Below, one piece after another: positions 55,901 to 63,259 of a DNA stretch of 64,000 bases. The stretch is from a bacterium (GTDB lineage Bacteria; SAR324; JACQKK01): the NCBI GenBank assembly GCA_965240465.1, contig OZ251219.1:1152001-1216000 (forward strand), given 5' to 3'. Position numbers and translations under genes: made by a program. Positions within the stretch are counted from its first letter, which is position 1; every line of letters begins with the position of its first letter. Under the pieces are notes generated by a model. That model made no database searches. It was not told the DNA's origin and saw only the letters and a list, made by a program, of their open reading frames with translations.

Positions 55901-55973
55901 TGGAGACGAGGAGAATCGAACTCCCGACCTCGGCATTGCGAACGCCGTGCTCTCCCAACTGAGCTACGTCCCC
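55901..55973 (-). tRNA. tRNA-Ala(CGC), CCA not encoded
   Basis: GGGGACGTAGCTCAGTTGGGAGAGCACGGCGTT-CGC-AATGCCGAGGTCGGGAGTTCGATTCTCCTCGTCTCCA; G3:U70 identity pair. Confidence 0.97.
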
Positions 55974-56207
55974 AGTATGTCCCTAGGTCTGAATGCGAGG
56001 CTATACCAATAAATAATAAAAAGCAAGGGGGGTAGGAAATTTTATTAGGTAGTTATCAGGTGGTGGTGGGGGGGGTATTAAGTGTGGATTAAGGAGGTAA
56101 GGGTTTAGAGTACCTAATGTATCTTAAATATAGTATGGTGGATGCCTTAATTACCTCAAGACGGTTTATTGGGGAGGTGATTTAGATATTTTGTTTTGGG
56201 TATTTTT

Positions 56208-58595
56208 ATGAATATCGCCAGGGCGTGTTTTGATGGACGCGTTTCAGAGATAGATAAGCAGATTATTGAGGAGGAATTGCAGATTCTGGAGAGTATGCGT
56301 GGTTTTTTTCATTCAGCTGAGGGTCATTCTGAGCGGATGCTAGATGATGAGATGCTATGGTTGCGTGATTCCATGGCTGAGTCGAGTAAGGATGACCAAG
56401 CTCAGTTGATGGCACAGCTGATATCGGTTTCTGAGTTAGCCAAGCAGAGAGTTACTCCGATGGAGAGTGTTCAGGAAGGCACGCCTTATTTTGGGCATTT
56501 ACGCCTGAAGCAGGAGGGTAGGACTCGTGATGTGCTGATAGGCAATGCTAATTTGATGAGGAGTGAAGCCCCCATGCCGATAGTGAATTGGCATAGTTCC
56601 CCAGTGAGTAGGGTATTTTATTGTTATCAGGAGGGGGATTTATTTGAGGAGAGTTTTGGTGGTCGTTTGGTGGATGGCGAGGTACTGGTACATAGGCGGT
56701 TGGTGATTGAGGGTGGTTTGCTATTGAGGGTGGAGTGTTTGCGGGGTCGTTTTCAGTTTATGGATGGTTGTTGGCGTCGGGTGAAGGAGCATCCTCTTAG
56801 TTTGACGGGTGGAGAGTATTCAGCTCTTCGTCCGAGCAAGGACAAGCCTAGTTTGGGGATTCAAGCCAGTGTTTCAGGATTGAGTGATCGTCGGCTGGCG
56901 AATATAACGGGTCTGCTGGATGAGTCTCAGTACGAGTTAATCACCGATGCTGATAGTCAGGTGATGGTAGTGGATGGCGGGGCGGGTTCTGGCAAGACGA
57001 CGGTAGCTTTGCATCGGCTAGCATTTTTATCTCAGCACGACCCTAAGCGATTTGTTCCTAGGCGGATGATGGTAGTGGTTTTCAGTGCTGCGATGGCATC
57101 CTATATTGAGCATTTTCTGCCTGCTCTGGAGGTACACAAATGTCGGATAGAGGTATATGAGAAGCTGGTAGAAAATTTAAGAAAGCGTCATTTTCCTAAG
57201 TTGCCAGCCGAGTATCACAGTACTACTACGGGTTTGGTTTGGCGTTTTAAGCATAGTTTTGTTTGTCAGGAGTTATTGCTTCGGGCTGCAAGCGAGCGGG
57301 CTGCCGAATGGGAAGCCGACCTGAGAGAAGCACTAGGTGAAGCTCCGCAGACTGAAATCTTGCTGGAGGGCTGGCGTAGATCGTCTTTTGAGTTCATTGC
57401 TCTGAGACCGCGAATGTTTGTTCGGTGGCTGGAAAATAAGGATCCAGAGCGTCCTTCGCCGCCAGAGCTGGATTATCTTTCCAAGCAGAGATTGCAAAAA
57501 GCACTGCAGCCCTTTGAACGGCTAGTCACAAAACCAGAGCACTTCGTACTGGATATCTGGTCGGAAAGCTTTCTTAGCCATGTCAAACTAACCGAACTGC
57601 TTAACAAAATCGCCCCCGATGCCTATACTCCCCAGCAAATCAGGGAACTACACCAAAAACTGTTCTCTGGATATAGCACCTTGCAAGATTGGCTAGAATG
57701 GAAATCGGAAACACCGACCGATGATCAATTATCAGGCAGCTTTAAGCTGGGTAAGGGAACTGCTCCCATTAAACCGCAATTCTACCGAGAAGACGATACC
57801 ATATTGCTATCATTATATCAGTCGCTTGTGGGACCACTACAAGAACACCGACAACCACTTAAACTCGCACATATCACCATAGATGAAGCTCAAGACTTCA
57901 GCCCGCCAGAATTGAAAATGCTCCTAAATATAGCGGAAAAACCCTTCTCCCTCACCCTGGCTGGCGATACCGAACAACGCGTTATCCTCCATCAAGAACC
58001 CAAGGGGTGGATACCCATGCTACGCGAAATAGGACTGGAAAATCATGCCAACCTCCGACGACTAGAAGTCGGATACCGCGGCACTGAACCGATTATCAAT
58101 TTCTCCCGCAAAATACTCGGACACCTCCACCAAGGACATCCTTGGCGTGCCATTCGGGGCGGACCTCCTGTTCTATTGCTGCAGTCCAAGCAAACAGGAT
58201 TCGGACCTGCCATCTCCTTTATTGCTCCTATCCTTAAAAGCCTCCAACAACGAGAACCACATGCTACCATCGCCCTCATCGCCAGAGAAGAACAAGAAGC
58301 TCAAGATTATCATCAGGGCTTACTCAATGCCGATGTCCCCAAACTTAGGCTCGTGCTGGATTACAATTTCTCCTTCCAAGCAGGCACCGACATCACCACC
58401 ATCACCCAAGTTAAAGGACTGGAATTTGATTATGTACTCATCCTCAACGTAAATCAGCAAAACTGGCACGATGATGACCACTCCCGATTTCTCCTCCATG
58501 TCGCCGCTACCAGAGCAGCTCATCAACTCTGGCTCATCTGCTGTGGAACTCCCTCAAAACTGCTGCCTGATAACTTACACACTTATTTATTCTAA
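56208..58595 (+). CDS. HelD-like superfamily-1 helicase/ATPase (UvrD/Rep related)
   Basis: PYFGHL, VNWHSSPVSRVFY, GGAGSGKTTVALHRLAFL, IDEAQD, GDTEQ, KGLEFD, LHVAATRA. Confidence 0.85.
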   Translation: MNIARACFDGRVSEIDKQIIEEELQILESMRGFFHSAEGHSERMLDDEMLWLRDSMAESSKDDQAQLMAQLISVSELAKQRVTPMESVQEGTPYFGHLRLKQEGRTRDVLIGNANLMRSEAPMPIVNWHSSPVSRVFYCYQEGDLFEESFGGRLVDGEVLVHRRLVIEGGLLLRVECLRGRFQFMDGCWRRVKEHPLSLTGGEYSALRPSKDKPSLGIQASVSGLSDRRLANITGLLDESQYELITDADSQVMVVDGGAGSGKTTVALHRLAFLSQHDPKRFVPRRMMVVVFSAAMASYIEHFLPALEVHKCRIEVYEKLVENLRKRHFPKLPAEYHSTTTGLVWRFKHSFVCQELLLRAASERAAEWEADLREALGEAPQTEILLEGWRRSSFEFIALRPRMFVRWLENKDPERPSPPELDYLSKQRLQKALQPFERLVTKPEHFVLDIWSESFLSHVKLTELLNKIAPDAYTPQQIRELHQKLFSGYSTLQDWLEWKSETPTDDQLSGSFKLGKGTAPIKPQFYREDDTILLSLYQSLVGPLQEHRQPLKLAHITIDEAQDFSPPELKMLLNIAEKPFSLTLAGDTEQRVILHQEPKGWIPMLREIGLENHANLRRLEVGYRGTEPIINFSRKILGHLHQGHPWRAIRGGPPVLLLQSKQTGFGPAISFIAPILKSLQQREPHATIALIAREEQEAQDYHQGLLNADVPKLRLVLDYNFSFQAGTDITTITQVKGLEFDYVLILNVNQQNWHDDDHSRFLLHVAATRAAHQLWLICCGTPSKLLPDNLHTYLF

Positions 58596-58650
58596 AAAAC
58601 AACCCATCCCTCACCTCACCCTCACCTCACCCCCCATCCCCCCTGAGAAC

Positions 58651-58679
58651 TTGACAAACCGATTGCCATTCCCTATACT
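58651..58679 (+). promoter_or_regulatory. Near-consensus sigma70 promoter driving the putative large ncRNA
   Basis: TTGACA (58651-56), 17 bp, TATACT (58674-79); no + strand ORF downstream. Confidence 0.8.
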
Positions 58680-58685
58680 CGCCTT

Positions 58686-59360
58686 ATCGGGACATTTTTT
58701 ACTCAAACTGCAGTCTTGCCAGACTAGTAGGCAAGCATGGATTAAAAAATGCTCTGAATACTGAATGAAAGGGAATGGGAAGTGACCACCTGAGGTTCCG
58801 TCAATACCGAAGGGTGGATCATACATGCCTTATGATGAGCTATGATCTTAATCGGTTACTTTGCTTTAATTGCAATTTGGCATGTGCAATGACGAGGAAG
58901 ATGAGGAGGTGGACTGCACCGTAATCTCTTCTCCCCTCCGCTAATGAGCAGAGTTTCTGCCATTAAGGGAAACGCGGATTAAGCAGTCGGCAGAAACAAT
59001 GGGGAGTGAAAACTCCGAAGGTCGTGAAACGCGGTTTCTGTTTTCTGGTGAGTACCTAGTCTGGTAGATTTTGGGTGCTTATCCGATGAATATATTTCAC
59101 GCCTAAGACCGAGCTGGGACTGGCATTGTCAGTCCTGATATCATCAGTCCGCTAGCTGCCAGAGCAAGTGCGAGATTGTAAGTCTCGGTCTACTGATTAG
59201 CAGTACCGTTTGGGTATTTGCTAGCGGAGCGGAGGTTGTCATTGCACACCGTAAGCTACCGTGGGGGGCTGGGAGGAAATGCCATCATCTCCGTGGAAAG
59301 AGAATAATGGAGCAAGCAATGACATTCCCCATCTCTTTTATTCTGCTCCTTTAGTTTTTT
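58686..59360 (+). ncRNA. Putative large (~670 nt) highly structured non-coding RNA of unassigned class
   Basis: Own promoter, no credible ORF, nested long-range helices 58763-79/59328-43, 58883-95/59236-48, 58935-42/59228-35, 59149-56/59220-27, 58989-97/59034-42, many local hairpins, U-rich 3' end. Confidence 0.75.
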
Positions 59361-59370
59361 TATTACCGCC

Positions 59371-61260
59371 CTACACTTCATCAACCTGCTCAGATCCATT
59401 AGCACCCGAGACATCAGTTTTTTTATAAGTTTCAATATTTGTTTTAGGCGGTAGTTTTTCCTTAGCTGCTGGTTTATTTTTTGTTTCACCAAATATTATT
59501 TTAATTTCTCTAATAATATTTTCTTTGCTTTTAGCCAACCCTTCAGGATCAGACATTAATGTTTCTATATCTGGATAAGATGCTAATTCTATAATAAAAC
59601 TATTAACGACACCTATATCAATATTTTTACTACAACCTTGAAGATTACTAAAATGAGGATCATTTTTTATTAGGTATGTAACCTCATCTTTATCAAATAT
59701 CTGTTCTATTTTTTTCCCATGTTTCAAATGATTAACTTGAACATTACATTCAGGATCCTTTGAGATATTATCACCAGAATCATTCCCTGCGTTGTCGTCA
59801 TCTAGCAAGCAATATACTTTTTCTTTAGGACAAAAAAATGAAGATATGAAAGATTCCATACTTGTAGTACCAGTCATGGGTATTATCCCAAAATCTTCTC
59901 CACTATCAACAGTGGATAAAGCATAATAATCTGTTATTCCCTCAACAACAACTATCTTATCTTTTGTAAAAGCCTCTTCAAGTAAAGAAGGTACAGAACC
60001 TAAAGCATCTCTTATTGGCTGAAAAGCCTCATCTTTCCCTTTTTTATGTTCTAGCGAGTGAGTTAATTTTATATTACTATCATCTTTTATGTCTCTATGA
60101 CATGTCATTGTTCTTGATAGAAATGCTTTTTGTAATAAATGTTGATAGTGAGTGGTATATACTACAAAATTTTTCTTTGCTAATTCTTTTAGAATCTTAC
60201 CTAAGGCTACTTGCGAAGAAGCATGTAAATAACAACCTGGTTCATCTAATAAATAAATAACACCATTCTTATTTTTCCTATAAGAGAAGGTTTTGATAAT
60301 GAGGTTAAAGAACCATAAAAAACCTCTACTTCTTTGATCAAGATCAAAATCACTACTTTTTTTATTAATAATCTCTTTTTTATTAACAGTCTTTTTTTCC
60401 TCAACAGTCTCTACAATTCCAATATTAATCTCACCATTTTCACGAGATAATTCAATTTCTAATTTACTTTTAGACGAAACATCCTCAATCTTTTGTAAGT
60501 GATCCCATTCTTCTCTTAATTCATTGTTAAAATTAGTAGCTATGGTACGTAGTTGTTTCTTACCTATATTCATAATATTACTACCAAAACTTTCAAGTAT
60601 TCTCTTAAATGTCTGGAATGAATAATCGTTATAACCTTTATTGTTCTCTTTAGGAATTCCTATAGGACTACTTATCTTATCTACATGATAATCGTAATAA
60701 ACCATACGAGGAAGTCTTCTGATAACACTTTTATAGAAATTTATATCAAGATCATTTTCACTGAATGATTTAAATTCACCTATTTTAAATTTATATTCAG
60801 GTTTTTTATCATTTCCAATAGTTCTTGTAATTTCAATGGTATTATTTTTAGGTATCGCTTCACGGAAATTATCTACTGCATCTGTCCAGCTACTATTAAA
60901 GCTACCAATATCATTATCAACATCTTCAAAAGTATATTCATGATCTTCATCATCTGGTACTTTATAGTTTAATCTTAAAAAAACATCCTTTAAATCTTCT
61001 TTTGTGCAAGAAATCTCTGCACATATGATTGCTTCCTCCCTCTCATCATAGTTATAGCGGTTAATAATATTTGTGAGGTGTTTATACCTTACATCATCAT
61101 CATCATTTCTATAATCAAAAGCCAACATAGCTTGCAGTATGGTCGTTTTACCGCATTCATTTATGCCGATGATGGGAACAGCACCATTTTCACCTAATTT
61201 AACTTCTAAATCTTCAGATATTGCTTTGTATTTTCTAATGATGAATTTTTTGTAATGCAT
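59371..61260 (-). CDS. OLD-family ATP-dependent nuclease (ABC-type ATPase + TOPRIM); AT-rich
   Basis: Walker A GINECGKT, signature RSRGFLWF, Walker B LLDEPGCYLH, TTH, TOPRIM VEGITD and DDDNAG. Confidence 0.88.
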   Translation of the reverse strand: MHYKKFIIRKYKAISEDLEVKLGENGAVPIIGINECGKTTILQAMLAFDYRNDDDDVRYKHLTNIINRYNYDEREEAIICAEISCTKEDLKDVFLRLNYKVPDDEDHEYTFEDVDNDIGSFNSSWTDAVDNFREAIPKNNTIEITRTIGNDKKPEYKFKIGEFKSFSENDLDINFYKSVIRRLPRMVYYDYHVDKISSPIGIPKENNKGYNDYSFQTFKRILESFGSNIMNIGKKQLRTIATNFNNELREEWDHLQKIEDVSSKSKLEIELSRENGEINIGIVETVEEKKTVNKKEIINKKSSDFDLDQRSRGFLWFFNLIIKTFSYRKNKNGVIYLLDEPGCYLHASSQVALGKILKELAKKNFVVYTTHYQHLLQKAFLSRTMTCHRDIKDDSNIKLTHSLEHKKGKDEAFQPIRDALGSVPSLLEEAFTKDKIVVVEGITDYYALSTVDSGEDFGIIPMTGTTSMESFISSFFCPKEKVYCLLDDDNAGNDSGDNISKDPECNVQVNHLKHGKKIEQIFDKDEVTYLIKNDPHFSNLQGCSKNIDIGVVNSFIIELASYPDIETLMSDPEGLAKSKENIIREIKIIFGETKNKPAAKEKLPPKTNIETYKKTDVSGANGSEQVDEV

Positions 61261-61339: not shown

Positions 61340-63259
61340 TTATTTAGGTTCTTTCCAAGCCCCGTGCGTTTTAATTAGTTCTACTAGACGAGTTACAGCT
61401 TGCTCTGCGGGTACGCCTTTTTCCACGCATTGCTGCCCCTTATAGAGATTGATTTTCCCAGGGGCACCGCCTACATAACCGAAGTCGGCATCAGCCATTT
61501 CGCCTGGTCCGTTGACGATACATCCCATGATTCCTATTTTCAATCCTTTGAGATGTGCGGTTTTGGCTTTGATGCTGGCGGTGGTTAGTTGGAGGTCAAA
61601 GAGGGTTCTGCCGCAGGAGGGGCAAGAGATGTAATCGGTTTGGAAGGTTTTTAGTCTGGCGGCTTGCATGAGGGTTTGACAGAATACGGATTCGGGGCTT
61701 TGGGGATTATCGTTGGGACAGATGATTGCGTCCAAGTAGCCGTCAACGGCGAGGGCACCGACTTCCACTGCGGTTTGGATGGAGGTATCTTTGGGGGCGA
61801 GTTGAGGCAATCGGGCTGCGATGAGCCAATCTAGCCCGAGTTCTTGGAGGTAGAGGATGAGACGGCGAGCGGGTTGTAGGCAGTAGGGAGCATCCAGTAC
61901 GAGCATACCTCTGTGGGGTTGATGTTTTAGGTTTTCTAGTAGGTAGGGGAGGTTTTGCCAGTCATCGGGTGAGATGAGCAGACAGAGGGGGTAGTTGAGA
62001 GAGGCGAGTTCGGGTGCGAGGGAGAAGGGGTATAGTCGCGGTAGTGGTGGTTTGGCGAGGAGTGGGGAGGGAGATTGTAAGCTAGTGCAGTTTGCGATGT
62101 GTGCGTCAAAGACCTCTTGTTTGTGGAAGGAAGGGAGTGAGAAGTGGGTTGGCGAGGCGGATGTTTGTGAGGCGGATGTTTGTGAGGAGGATGTTTGTGA
62201 GGAGGATGTTTGTGCGAGCAATGCGACTGGGTTTTGGTAGCCGAGGGATAGTTTTCCTAGTTGTATGGAGCGAGTTTTTCGTCTTTGGAAGGTTGTTGGT
62301 GGGAGCCATGGTACATTTTTCCAGTGGGGTCCTTGTGAGACGCTGTGGACGGCTTGGATGATGGCATTAGCGACGGGGATTTCGTTTTCAGAGGGTTCGG
62401 TGAGTGATACTCGGATGGTGTCTCCGAGTCCATCGGCTAGGAGGGTTCCGATACCTAGTGCGGATTTACATCGTGCTTGGAGTCCGTCTCCGGCTTCTGT
62501 TACGCCGAGGTGTAGTGGGAAGTCCATATTTTTGGCGATCATATCTTTTGCGAGTAGTCGGTATGCGGCCACGGCGACCAAGGGATTGGAGGATTTCATT
62601 GAGACGATGACGGATTTGAAGTTATTTTTTTGGCAGATGAGGAGGTATTCCATAGCACATTGTACCATTCCCTTTGGAGTGTCTCCCCAGCGGTTGAGGA
62701 TGCGGTCAGAGAGCGAGCCGTGGTTGACTCCGATTCTCAAGGCGCGTTGGGATTGTTGTAGTTTTTCTAGGAGAGGTTGGAAGGTTATTTGGACGCGTTG
62801 GAGTTCTTCTTTATATTGGGAGTTGGTATATTCTCGCAGTTGGAAGCGTTTTTGGTCTACGAAGTTCCCTGGGTTGATACGTACTTTTTCCACCCATTGG
62901 GTGCAGTTTAGTGCTAGTGCGGGGTTGAAGTGAATATCGGCAGCTATGGGCATGGTTATGCCGTTCATTTTTTTGCGAATGAGGGGCAATGCTTTTAGGT
63001 CTCGCCTAGTGGGAATTGTAATTCGCACCAGTTGACAGCCCGCGGTTTGTAGCCGTTGCATTTCCGCGATGACTTGGGAGACATCGGTAGTGGGGCTGGT
63101 CAGCATGGATTGCACGCAGATAGGAGCGTTTCCTCCGATGACCAGATCTCCTACCTTAACCTCTCTGGATGCCCGACGACATACCGCCAAAGAACGCATA
63201 AATAATCCTAAGTGTGTCAAGTTTGTGTTGAAGAGTACTAGTTTATCTTGTAATGCCAT
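61340..63259 (-). CDS. ispG: HMBPP synthase IspG, long three-domain type (start may be ATG 63199)
   Basis: VQSM, ADIHFNP, RINPGN, RIGVNHGSL, PLHLGVTEAG, GDTIRVSL, SCPSCGR, MGCIVNGPGE. Confidence 0.97.
   Translation of the reverse strand: MALQDKLVLFNTNLTHLGLFMRSLAVCRRASREVKVGDLVIGGNAPICVQSMLTSPTTDVSQVIAEMQRLQTAGCQLVRITIPTRRDLKALPLIRKKMNGITMPIAADIHFNPALALNCTQWVEKVRINPGNFVDQKRFQLREYTNSQYKEELQRVQITFQPLLEKLQQSQRALRIGVNHGSLSDRILNRWGDTPKGMVQCAMEYLLICQKNNFKSVIVSMKSSNPLVAVAAYRLLAKDMIAKNMDFPLHLGVTEAGDGLQARCKSALGIGTLLADGLGDTIRVSLTEPSENEIPVANAIIQAVHSVSQGPHWKNVPWLPPTTFQRRKTRSIQLGKLSLGYQNPVALLAQTSSSQTSSSQTSASQTSASPTHFSLPSFHKQEVFDAHIANCTSLQSPSPLLAKPPLPRLYPFSLAPELASLNYPLCLLISPDDWQNLPYLLENLKHQPHRGMLVLDAPYCLQPARRLILYLQELGLDWLIAARLPQLAPKDTSIQTAVEVGALAVDGYLDAIICPNDNPQSPESVFCQTLMQAARLKTFQTDYISCPSCGRTLFDLQLTTASIKAKTAHLKGLKIGIMGCIVNGPGEMADADFGYVGGAPGKINLYKGQQCVEKGVPAEQAVTRLVELIKTHGAWKEPK
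62154..62215. repeat. 15-bp in-frame repeat (QTSSS/QTSAS) in ispG
   Basis: GAGG(C/A)GGATGTTTGT x4. Confidence 0.88.

Follow-up and report, generated by a model that had tools for sequence, protein, structure and literature searches.

What is encoded at positions 58686-59360 of the window (the whole 64,000-nucleotide stretch of SAR324 DNA that was analysed)? A sequence-only reading had proposed a large ornate noncoding RNA with its own sigma-70 promoter, either a new RNA or a very diverged relative of OLE, and had drawn a list of helices for it. We have addressed the question by comparing the locus with its paralogues in the same genome, with known RNA families and with other sequence collections.

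A seven-member family with a conserved promoter

The element (58651-59343) is one of seven paralogues in a genome of 1.6 Mb, found by blastn and by a covariance model of the family (R1) that retrieved these seven copies from the genome, with scores of 43.8-200.9 bits, and no further ones. Two size classes are apparent, five long copies (core of 552-590 nt) and two short ones (221 and 251 nt). Identity between the window copy and the other long copies is no more than 68-69%, but length and invariant sequence blocks are retained. Since the long copies c2, c4 and c5 are near-identical, the family amounts to about five independent sequences, a small effective sample, and because it is known from a single genome all comparisons are between paralogues. 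Together the copies take up about 4 kb of this reduced genome, which, with most long copies lying beside lipoprotein arrays (see below), argues for a real organism-specific role. Two features flank the structured part:

58651..58679, + strand: sigma-70-type promoter TTGACA-17-TATACT, 11/12 consensus positions, inside the extended motif CTTGACAAAC
59350..59365, + strand: U-rich tail, window copy only and unconserved; no terminator-like site was called there

The promoter, already recognised in the sequence-only reading, was confirmed in 7/7 copies, all of which keep the -35 box TTGACA, the 17-nt spacer length and a TAnAnT -10 box. The extended motif CTTGACAAAC occurs 10 times in the whole genome, seven of them at the family RNAs and others upstream of rpsA and ssb. 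From the spacing to the -10 box, transcription would start at ~58686. The 3' end of the transcript probably lies near the 3' strand of the closing helix P1, and similarity between copies breaks off directly after CUUUCAUUC. The U-rich tail noted before is indeed present in the window copy but absent from the others, which continue into C-rich or repeat sequence. With such a strong promoter the RNA should be abundant, if expressed; the stretch is contained in two sequencing runs, both from one study, with no RNA run listed. The stretch indeed holds no long ORF. The overlapping ORFs are of 32-97 aa, and their frames are disrupted from one paralogue to another by indels of 1, 4 and other lengths that are not multiples of three. 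A small coding ORF was rejected on these grounds.

The region was searched with cmscan against all 4227 families of Rfam 15. No hit was obtained at the gathering threshold, and at E<=10 positions 58500-59500 gave only four unrelated matches (15.9-18.9 bits), while the loci of five copies gave six unrelated ones, none recurring. None of the models for OLE, ROOL, GOLLD, HEARO, raiA, RNase P, tmRNA, introns or retrons was among these sub-threshold matches, in agreement with the earlier remark that the region lacks the hallmarks of tmRNA, RNase P and introns. The idea of a diverged OLE-like RNA found no support in these searches. Identity with RNase P RNA or tmRNA was rejected, the region matching neither model and the canonical genes being located elsewhere (225900-226344, RF00010, 256.8 bits, and 1475815-1476194, RF00023, 159.6 bits, respectively), as was a divergent SRP or rRNA fragment, for which Rfam gave no match. 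The 6S model found nothing in the whole genome, a weak test given that it detects only 5 of 14 control genomes.

No relatives were recovered outside this genome. The numbers of homologues were zero for blastn in 60 relatives, for R1 in 150 relatives and for a second covariance model built from all seven copies (R2) in the 87 other genomes of the phylum that were searched. In the same-genus genome taken alone the best R1 score was 9 bits (E = 4), and the lack of the RNA there implies that it is not essential to the genus. The pattern GAGGAGGTN{3,9}TGCACCGNAATCTCT was found neither in genome contigs (185,579 species genomes) nor in viral contigs (2.9 million contigs). Its single match in metagenome contigs lies within a long ORF where the other conserved elements are missing, and was therefore read as chance. 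A looser pattern, TGACGN{6,14}GGAGGTN{3,9}TGCACCGNAATC, had three matches in genome contigs, approximately the chance number and none scoring with R1, and zero in viral contigs, as had two patterns specific to the long form. Nor did blastn in distant mode find any match among 50,697 phage and 72,556 plasmid records, although the collections searched may omit the records of the window genome itself. In the literature, the RNA is not described among titles and abstracts on large or ornate ncRNA, SAR324 and multicopy pseudoknotted ncRNA.

These searches support the view that the family would constitute a new class of large structured RNA, previously undescribed and present in no other sequence searched. 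Of the two possibilities raised initially it is thus the "new large RNA" that is favoured, by the seven paralogues, the conserved promoter, compensatory pairing and the lack of an Rfam family. Paralogy, promoter conservation and the lack of a match to a known family are direct observations, as are the covarying helices and pseudoknots presented below, and a genuine structured-RNA gene family, with predicted expression, appears very probable. That the family is confined to one lineage, that its members are highly structured ncRNAs with independent transcription, and that they form a new class without detectable relative is in our opinion probable too, with less assurance.

Predicted fold of the core and of the long-form domain

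A way to examine the fold within a single genome is offered by the paralogues themselves, since seven diverged copies supply internal covariation without other genomes, and the short copies are natural versions that delimit a minimal core for structural work. This core comprises P1, PA, PB, one X module and the 3' tail:

58763..58779 with 59328..59343, + strand: P1 closing helix, end of the conserved element, forms in 7/7 copies
58782..58822, + strand: PA hairpin, with invariant loop UGAGGUUC..GUCA that is predicted to form PK1
58799..58805, + strand: PK1 strand a (PA loop CGUCA(A)U), partner 58889-58894 (AUGACG)
58889..58894, + strand: PK1 strand b AUGACG, within a conserved GCAA(A/G)UGACG element
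58823..58885, + strand: PB hairpin of variable length (ACATGCC/GGCATGT stem), with covariation
58894..58931, + strand: X1 module, in the order helix, GA-GGA-GGU, loop, ACC-GUAA, helix

The 5' core was modelled with 34 pairs over the seven copies, and 97.0% of cells were paired versus 30-47% with slid partners, a percentage that is inflated because this alignment was fitted to the structure of the model. Changes on both sides affected 14 of the 34 pairs, a number matched by 0 of 500 shuffles. P1 has a duplex energy of -22.5 to -30.8 kcal/mol in the seven copies; in the long ones it is 99% paired, three of its pairs have changed in both strands, and indels in one strand are matched in the other. 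The seven pairs of PA are 100% paired in the seven copies, and at five of them both partners differ when long forms are compared with short ones. PB is 96% paired and all seven of its pairs have changed on both sides. The five pairs of PK1 (94% paired, duplexes of 5-6 bp in 7/7 copies) include one compensatory pair, U-A in the long forms and C-G in the short ones, and it is this single pair that suggests PK1. Within X1, GAGGAGGU and UGCACCG(U/A)AAUCUCUU are invariant in 7/7 copies, and its helices (5 and 6 of the 5'-core model) are 98-100% paired with one compensatory pair. Its 3x4 internal loop may be a sarcin-ricin or loop-E type motif, which would make the module a putative protein-binding S-turn.

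The long copies carry about 290-330 nt more than the short ones, including a second X module. The additional features, together with the leader and the 3' part of the core, are the following:

58684..58761, + strand: 5' leader hairpin with an inner hairpin 58713-20/58726-32, pairing in the five long copies
58932..59223, + strand: long-form-only domain, missing in both short paralogues
~59117-59190, + strand: variable expansion region, 20-40 nt indels between copies
59224..59262, + strand: X2 module, second GGAGGU..ACCGUAA copy, with a loop GUCAUUGC that is predicted to form PK2
59238..59245, + strand: PK2 strand a (X2 loop GUCAUUGC), partner 59316-59323
59316..59323, + strand: PK2 strand b GCAAUGAC, partner 59238-59245
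59280..59312, + strand: conserved 3' hairpin CCAU-CA-UCUC ... GAGA-AUA-AUGG, 100% paired

PK2 was counted on a MAFFT alignment that was not fitted to any structure; its eight pairs are 97.5% paired versus 22-60% when slid, three of the eight have changed on both sides, and duplexes of 7-8 bp are present in 7/7 copies. The X2 of the long forms aligns with the X1 of the short ones, the GGU/ACC pairs being invariant and the flanking helix having one compensatory pair. The 3' hairpin is almost invariant and for this reason uninformative about covariation. Invariant blocks of the long-form domain are AUUAAGGG..AAACGCGGAU, GCAGAAAC/GUUUCUG (58990-97/59034-41) and GAAGGUCGUG. The sequence of the leader varies, its helices 1-4 being 82-100% paired in the five long copies with four pairs changed on both sides. 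In the full long-form model, whose consensus was built from the same sequences used for counting (which inflates the paired fraction), the 198 pairs are 95.4% paired versus 39-45% when slid, and 21 of them have changed on both sides versus 4-8. Pairing is therefore kept among homologues through two-sided changes (blastn, pair counts), as the sequence-only reading had asked to be checked. Compensatory changes support P1, PA, PB, the X module and the two pseudoknots as elements of the predicted fold.

How do the helices drawn from the window copy alone compare with this fold? The seven main complementarities do all exist there as stated, namely H1 of 14 bp, H2 of 16 bp with one bulge, H3 of 13 bp, H6 of 7 bp, and H4, H5 and H7 of 8 bp each. 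As a conserved fold, the list survives only in part. H2 (P1) and H6 (PB) are conserved and covarying among the five long copies, and H7 and the GGAG/CTCC hairpin are conserved in comparison with the four other long paralogues. H1 is retained as a hairpin, but with a register and a sequence that differ between copies. H3 (58883-95/59236-48) shows only one-sided changes and competes for bases with the two pseudoknots, which covary across the long and the short copies; H4 has an uncompensated C.U in three of five copies and overlaps the conserved GGAGGU motif; H5 (59149-56/59220-27) has a 2-nt gap, an A.C mismatch and, in one copy, a deleted 5' strand. As we read the alignment, the sequences of the c2 group are incompatible with the hairpin at 59191-205, and an alternative covarying hairpin (59198-207/59213-23) takes its place.

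Folding energies are consistent with a structured RNA. The + strand of the window copy reached -235.7 kcal/mol (z = -3.56), a value that none of 20 shuffles equalled; the - strand folds similarly well (z = -3.99), so that folding energy alone leaves the strand undecided. G.U pairs in the model number 25-36 per copy versus 0-7 A.C, an excess that fits the promoter strand. The short forms gave z = -6.75 and -8.78 (100 shuffles each), the latter value being inflated by a tandem repeat.

Genomic context and possible roles

The preferred reading is a folded RNA acting in trans. RNA synthesis would start at the strong housekeeping-type promoter, and the transcript would comprise a variable leader hairpin followed by the core closed by P1. 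The PA loop would reach the conserved AUGACG element (PK1) and the purine-rich X module (helix-GGA-GGU[loop]ACC-GUAA-helix) would send its loop to the 3' tail (PK2), giving a compact double-pseudoknot fold. The folded particle might then serve as scaffold or decoy for a protein partner recognising the invariant X module, with one site in the short forms and two in the long ones. We infer trans action and protein binding, while the scaffold or decoy mechanism specifically is put forward tentatively, as a possibility somewhat short of even. Roles as mRNA, riboswitch, guide or retroelement RNA are not thought likely.

An RNA that works with no protein partner at all, whether as a large ribozyme or as a homo- or hetero-oligomeric particle made of RNA alone, in which case the PK1 and PK2 pairs could also form between molecules, is unlikely in our view. 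Its size, invariant blocks and double-pseudoknot core do resemble those of large ornate RNAs; in PMC12286853, GOLLD, ROOL and OLE are reported as homo-oligomers, RNA-only multimers. The copies have no consistently adjacent gene that could code for a partner protein. Moreover, the loops of the long forms (CGUCAU and GUCAUUGC) are cross-compatible with both acceptors (AAUGACG and GCAAUGAC), which is why the 13-bp helix H3 could also be drawn. However, the pseudoknots of the short forms use unrelated sequences, GUCAC/GUGAC and GCUAUUGC/GCAAUAGC, and the cross-compatibility looks therefore like a peculiarity of the long forms.

The copies are flanked by genes for lipoproteins, a helicase, an ATPase, Smr, UvrB and HutH. 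In four of the five long copies the RNA starts 63-140 nt downstream of the stop codon of a GLUG-repeat lipoprotein ORF that runs in the same direction; 46 ORFs of this kind were counted in the genome, one of them solitary and the rest grouped in five clusters. This adjacency is left unexplained by a purely trans housekeeping role. It could indicate a cis-acting element of the lipoprotein arrays, be it a structured insulator or 3' boundary, an element that affects processing or stability, or a cassette of promoter and leader by which the next lipoprotein gene is driven or attenuated. The two copies that have a same-strand lipoprotein gene next downstream (c2 and c5) precede it by ~190-225 nt (a coordinate estimate) of C-rich spacer, as such a cassette might. 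Several observations go against it. The downstream gene is convergent at c1, c3, c4 and s6, so that three of the five long copies face an unrelated gene (OLD-like ATPase, Smr or UvrB), which argues against cis regulation. The window copy and both short copies have no adjoining lipoprotein gene and two lipoprotein clusters have no copy. The common context of the near-identical c2, c4 and c5 may stem from one segmental duplication, and a conserved promoter belongs to the RNA itself. The duplexes predicted with the translation-initiation regions of 16 lipoprotein genes do not exceed in strength those predicted with 60 control genes (mean energies of -35.7 to -41.5 and -39.2 to -44.3, respectively). 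We regard a cis-acting element as distinctly improbable. A riboswitch or cis-regulatory leader was rejected, the position not being constant upstream of a related same-strand gene.

The multicopy, dispersed distribution also evokes a selfish or mobile element, as RNA or DNA (an ORF-less group II intron, a retron, DGR or DRT ncRNA, an omega RNA or a non-autonomous repeat). Along these lines, the window copy has defence-like neighbours, on one side a gene for a UvrD-like helicase and on the other one for an AAA_15/AriA/Old-like ATPase, and the family is absent from the sister species, including the syntenic sites by gor (73% identical) and uvrB (76% identical), both present there with no large intergenic gap beside them; hutH was not found in that species. 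Against this stand the zero matches to reverse transcriptase (PF00078; the control search was positive in three genomes) and to TnpB (PF07282) in the genome, a single contig that is 83.6% complete by marker count, the lack of intron, retron and HEARO matches even at E<=10, and the lack of matches in the phage, plasmid and viral collections. Furthermore, the conserved unit starts at the -35 box, upstream of the transcript, which excludes copying via RNA; the flanks, read by eye, have no terminal repeats or target duplications; and the copies are old (68% identity) and covarying, pointing to selection on the fold. A mobile origin is thus very unlikely. A MITE or DNA-level inverted repeat was rejected, since the promoter strand, the G.U excess and the pseudoknots speak for selection acting on the RNA. 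So was a TnpB/IscB omega RNA, on a genome search with the TnpB domain PF07282 (no match) and on the identity of the neighbouring genes, which include no RNA-guided nuclease. A base-pairing sRNA, guide or antisense RNA was discarded as well, no recurring complementary target having been found; blastn-short of the seven RNAs against the genome gave only chance-level matches of 14-20 nt (E = 0.05-3.4), none recurring meaningfully.

Least probable of all, and very unlikely, is a ribosome decoy in which the invariant GAGGAGGU of X1 (7/7 copies), with a second GGAGGU or UGAGGU in the X2 of the long forms and a strong promoter of a type shared with rpsA, would mimic a Shine-Dalgarno sequence and titrate the 16S rRNA 3' end or 30S subunits, since in the covariation-supported fold the motif is not free (its GGU pairs with ACC, 100% kept in 7/7 copies, and its GGA lies within the internal loop) and no conserved start codon or ORF follows it.

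Comparison with known RNA systems

To our knowledge, few bacterial RNAs that are both large (over 500 nt) and intricately folded have been described, most of them with no function assigned, and any further class could prove to be a ribozyme, an RNP machine or an assembly of RNA alone. Classes confined to one uncultured lineage escape surveys that require many genomes. Here the two predicted pseudoknots are open to experimental testing. A more ambitious combination, in which this would be a new double-pseudoknotted class working as a catalytic or self-assembling RNA or RNP particle and tied to the expression, export or variation of the GLUG lipoproteins, is rather unlikely; if true, no ornate RNA before it would have been connected with a system of cell-surface proteins.

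Among known systems OLE RNA (RF01071) is similar in being a stand-alone ncRNA of the ~600 nt class with intricate helices and invariant nucleotides (PMC9723947, PMC12054373). The family described here differs in giving no match to the OLE model at E<=10 and in its two covarying pseudoknots. OLE is found in Bacillota, with one copy per genome, whereas here there are seven paralogues in two size classes and the host comes from a small phylum, represented by 88 genomes in the collection searched. ROOL and GOLLD are likewise large and highly structured, can be highly expressed and often reside in prophages. In contrast, the present RNAs match neither covariance model, do not lie in a phage context and found no counterpart in the phage and viral collections, are confined to one genome, and most of the long copies lie beside lipoprotein genes rather than in prophages.

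RNase P RNA and tmRNA are comparable in size, long-range pseudoknots and conserved single-stranded blocks, but differ in that their canonical genes are elsewhere in the genome and their models do not match the region. HEARO omega RNAs and retroelement ncRNAs are also structured, pseudoknotted, multicopy and often lineage-restricted; unlike in HEARO, retron msr-msd, DRT or group II systems, the genome lacks TnpB and reverse transcriptase and no model matched, the conserved unit includes the upstream promoter, and there is no guide-like variable end with genomic targets. CsrB/CsrC, RsmX/Y/Z and 6S resemble the family in having several paralogous genes per genome, each with its promoter, and in a repeated purine-rich GGA unit whose copy number varies between paralogues (here one X module in the short forms and two in the long ones). 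CsrB/CsrC and RsmX/Y/Z are simple hairpin arrays and 6S is one long irregular helix, none of them known to have a conserved tertiary fold, whereas the family described here, which has no Rfam match, has a closing helix, two predicted pseudoknots and long invariant blocks.

Seven copies in the host genome

The candidate large structured RNA (58651-59343, + strand) lies in the gap (58596-59370) between two convergent genes. Only short ORFs (32-97 aa) overlap this stretch, in keeping with its description as ORF-free in the sequence-only reading.

Features of the window around the RNA
55901-55973, -, tRNA gene (Rfam, 64.1 bits), 2.7 kb upstream of the RNA
56196-58595, +, UvrD-like helicase (best PADLOC matches RTasHel, NERD+UvrD and GajB)
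59371-61260, -, AAA_15/AriA/Old-like ATPase (AriA 73.9 bits, Old 53.4 bits)
61340-63259, -, IspG (GcpE) homologue, 639 aa, with a low-complexity insertion (SSSQTSSSQTSASQTSAS)

The flanking convergent genes are a defence-like pair in an arrangement unlike the canonical Gabija or PARIS operon. The insertion in IspG fits the tendency of this genome to in-frame repeats.

In the host genome (a single contig of 1,599,138 bases, 45.4% G+C), blastn with 58640-59370 as query found four further full-length copies, each sharing 68-69% identity with the window copy (c1), and two extra 46-nt matches to the most conserved block. Both short matches belong to complete, shorter versions of the element (s6 and s7), with the promoter, closing helix and conserved blocks common to the long copies (c1-c5). 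The core bounded by the closing helix spans 552-590 nt in the long copies, and 251 and 221 nt in the two short copies. Exactly these seven places, and none besides, match a covariance model built on the 5' core (R1): the long copies score 200.9, 199.2, 197.9, 180.3 and 151.9 bits, and the short copies 54.6 and 43.8 bits. Since c2, c4 and c5 are nearly identical to each other and c1, c3, s6 and s7 are each distinct, the copies amount to about five independent sequences. tRNA-like matches also lie within ~3.5 kb of c5 and s7; three of seven copies is not clearly above chance. Tandem repeats are also present around several copies, and the leader of s7 (L007 ~1205-1400; genome ~1328355-1328550) has about ten head-to-tail 16-nt units (GCATTAGAACATGCAA) between the promoter and the closing helix.

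The proposed promoter, TTGACA-17-TATACT, is present at 58651-58679 and agrees with the consensus at 11 of 12 positions. It is kept in all seven copies (TTGACA, a 17-nt spacer and a TAnAnT -10 box), and the conserved unit starts slightly upstream of the -35 box. Because sequence upstream of the transcript is also conserved, the copies must have spread as DNA, without an RNA intermediate. The extended promoter motif CTTGACAAAC occurs just 10 times genome-wide, seven times at RNA copies; two of the other three occurrences are upstream of rpsA and ssb; it looks like the strong housekeeping promoter type of this organism. Between this promoter and the ssb start codon (genome ~607100-607800, -) is a ~600-nt tract of G-rich tandem repeats, each unit being ~95 nt long; in the same-genus genome the ssb promoter and leader start are retained and the repeats are absent.

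The + strand folds at -235.7 kcal/mol, versus a mean of -204.3 (sd 8.8) for 20 dinucleotide shuffles (z = -3.56), and none of the 20 folded as well in this suggested check. Since the - strand reaches z = -3.99, folding energy alone cannot decide the strand. The excess of G.U pairs (25-36 per copy) over A.C (0-7) in the consensus long-form model agrees with the promoter-bearing strand. C-rich tracts, made of CCCTCACCTCACC-type repeats and runs of 8-10 C broken by A-runs, border the RNA genes at 58596-58645 and in the 3' flanks of c2, c4 and c5 (L002, L004 and L005); they might be Rho-loading sites or slippage products.

Architecture and covariation

The short forms represent the minimal plan of the RNA. 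A variable leader hairpin is followed by the closing helix P1, a hairpin (PA) whose loop makes pseudoknot PK1, a hairpin of variable length (PB), the block GCAAGUGACG, one X module (GGAGGU..ACCGUAA) whose loop makes pseudoknot PK2, a variable hairpin region, the 3' tail and the 3' strand of P1. In the long forms a first X module (X1) has a short closed loop, an additional domain of ~290-330 nt comes next, and PK2 is made by the loop of the second module, X2. The extra domain has its own invariant blocks, such as AUUAAGGG..AAACGCGGAU, GCAGAAAC/GUUUCUG and GAAGGUCGUG.

We have aligned the 5' core of all seven copies with R1 (alignment A6). Standard pairs fill 97.0% of the cells of its 34 pairs, a percentage inflated by the fitting of A6 to the R1 helices, versus 30-47% after sliding the 3' partners by 1-3 columns. 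Changes on both sides are seen in 14 of the 34 pairs; on each of the five measures, all 500 column shuffles fell short. Compensatory pairs make up five of seven in PA (100% paired) and all seven in PB; the X1 stem is nearly invariant, with one. PK1 joins the PA loop to a conserved element upstream of X1 (CGUCAU/AUGACG in long forms, CGUCAC/GUGACG in short ones); its five pairs are 94% paired, one of them compensatory, a count that is an independent test because PK1 is absent from R1. PK2, between the X-module loop and the 3' tail, pairs GUCAUUGC with GCAAUGAC in the long forms, GCUAUUGC with GCAAUAGC in s6 and GCCACUGC with GCAGUAGC in s7. In a plain MAFFT alignment (A9) its eight pairs are 97.5% paired versus 22-60% slid, with three compensatory pairs and a single C.A mismatch, in s7. 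P1 forms in all seven copies (-22.5 to -30.8 kcal/mol); among the long ones, three of its pairs are compensatory and the indels on its two strands match. The whole long-form model (RNAalifold with imposed constraints, five sequences) has 198 pairs, 95.4% paired versus 39-45% slid, 21 of them changed on both sides versus 4-8, an advantage expected to some degree since the model was derived from the same five sequences. As far as sequence comparison goes, these data establish a genuine selected RNA fold in seven genes, each with its own predicted promoter.

All seven main complementarities of the sequence-only reading form in the window copy where it had placed them, and P1 (58763-79/59328-43, its H2), PB (H6), GGCAGAAAC/GTTTCTG (H7) and the GGAG/CTCC hairpin are conserved among the long copies. 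Every long copy could form the 13-bp helix (58883-95/59236-48), but this helix varies on one side only and competes with PK1 and PK2, using up the acceptor of the first and the loop of the second. These strands are not mutually complementary in the short forms, whereas PK1 and PK2 covary, and for this reason we have taken the pseudoknots to be what is conserved; the helix can be no more than an alternative conformer specific to long forms. Other proposed elements were lost in the comparison: three copies have a C.U in CCTCCGCT/AGCGGAGG that is not compensated, and this helix overlaps with the GGAGGU motif of X2; CCGCTAGC/GCTAGCGG is peculiar to the window copy, and the U-rich tail, present there, is not conserved. 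The hairpin at 59191-205 gives way to UAGCAGUACC/GGGUAUUUGCUA, a hairpin whose covarying counterpart in the c2 group is UAGUGGCAUC/GGUAGCCACUA (helix 27 of the long-form model).

Known families and relatives

Rfam 15 (4227 families) gave no match at the gathering threshold in the RNA region and, at E<=10, just four unrelated weak matches there and no recurring family over the loci of five copies, so the suggested novelty stands. Canonical RNase P RNA and tmRNA are at other loci of the host genome. With no reverse transcriptase and no TnpB in this genome, the readings as an intron, retron, DGR, DRT or omega RNA fall away. None of the seven RNAs has complementarity to the rest of the genome above chance, and the parts of the literature consulted held no description of the RNA.

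No homologue was found by blastn in 60 relatives, by R1 in 150 relatives or in the same-genus genome searched on its own (best 9 bits), or in 87 other genomes of the phylum by R2, the covariance model from all seven copies. In 185,579 species genomes, pattern scans gave no match and then three chance matches rejected by R1; 241 million metagenome records gave one, inside a long open reading frame and judged chance, and 2.9 million viral contigs (four patterns) and phage and plasmid records gave none. Since the patterns reach only close relatives and many of the genomes are incomplete, the absence holds for the sequences searched. The sister species, a distant one (Gor 73% and UvrB 76% identical as proteins), has no large intergenic gap at the two syntenic sites examined.

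Genomic neighbours and possible role

The host genome has 46 ORFs with GLUG-type repeats (Pfam GLUG) and a common C-terminal motif, in five clusters and one lone gene.

GLUG ORFs in the host genome (G000) outside the window, with examples
~313-351 kb, cluster
~699-716 kb, cluster
~797-812 kb, cluster
~871-909 kb, cluster
~1344-1357 kb, cluster
530 kb, lone gene
L002:2309-3580, -, example
L003, upstream of position 1438, example

The products are exported lipoproteins with a common signal peptide (MKKLSLLS..LASCGG) and a CGQ..DFVQC C-terminal motif, many with thrombospondin-type DxDxDG repeats; the five arrays are co-oriented. The size of the family is striking in a 1.6 Mb genome. Of the five long RNA copies, four begin 63-140 nt past the stop codon of a GLUG ORF on the same strand, a placement that by our rough estimate a random site would have with a chance of ~0.2%. 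The link is unlikely to be chance, even counting c2, c4 and c5 as one duplication event; it may stem from co-amplification inside the arrays or from a functional connection. The window copy and both short copies have no such placement.

The mechanism that we tentatively prefer is that the RNA might act in trans, as a scaffold or decoy. Four other readings are its main rivals: that the RNA alone forms a catalytic or self-assembling particle, that it is a cis-acting element belonging to the lipoprotein arrays, that it is a selfish element, or that it is a Shine-Dalgarno decoy. As a trans-acting scaffold or decoy, the RNA would be recognised at its invariant X module, of which the short forms have one and the long forms two. 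The layout of this module is helix-GGA-GGU[loop]ACC-GUAA-helix, and the 3-by-4 internal loop beside the GGU/ACC stem may resemble a sarcin-ricin or loop-E (bulged-G) motif.
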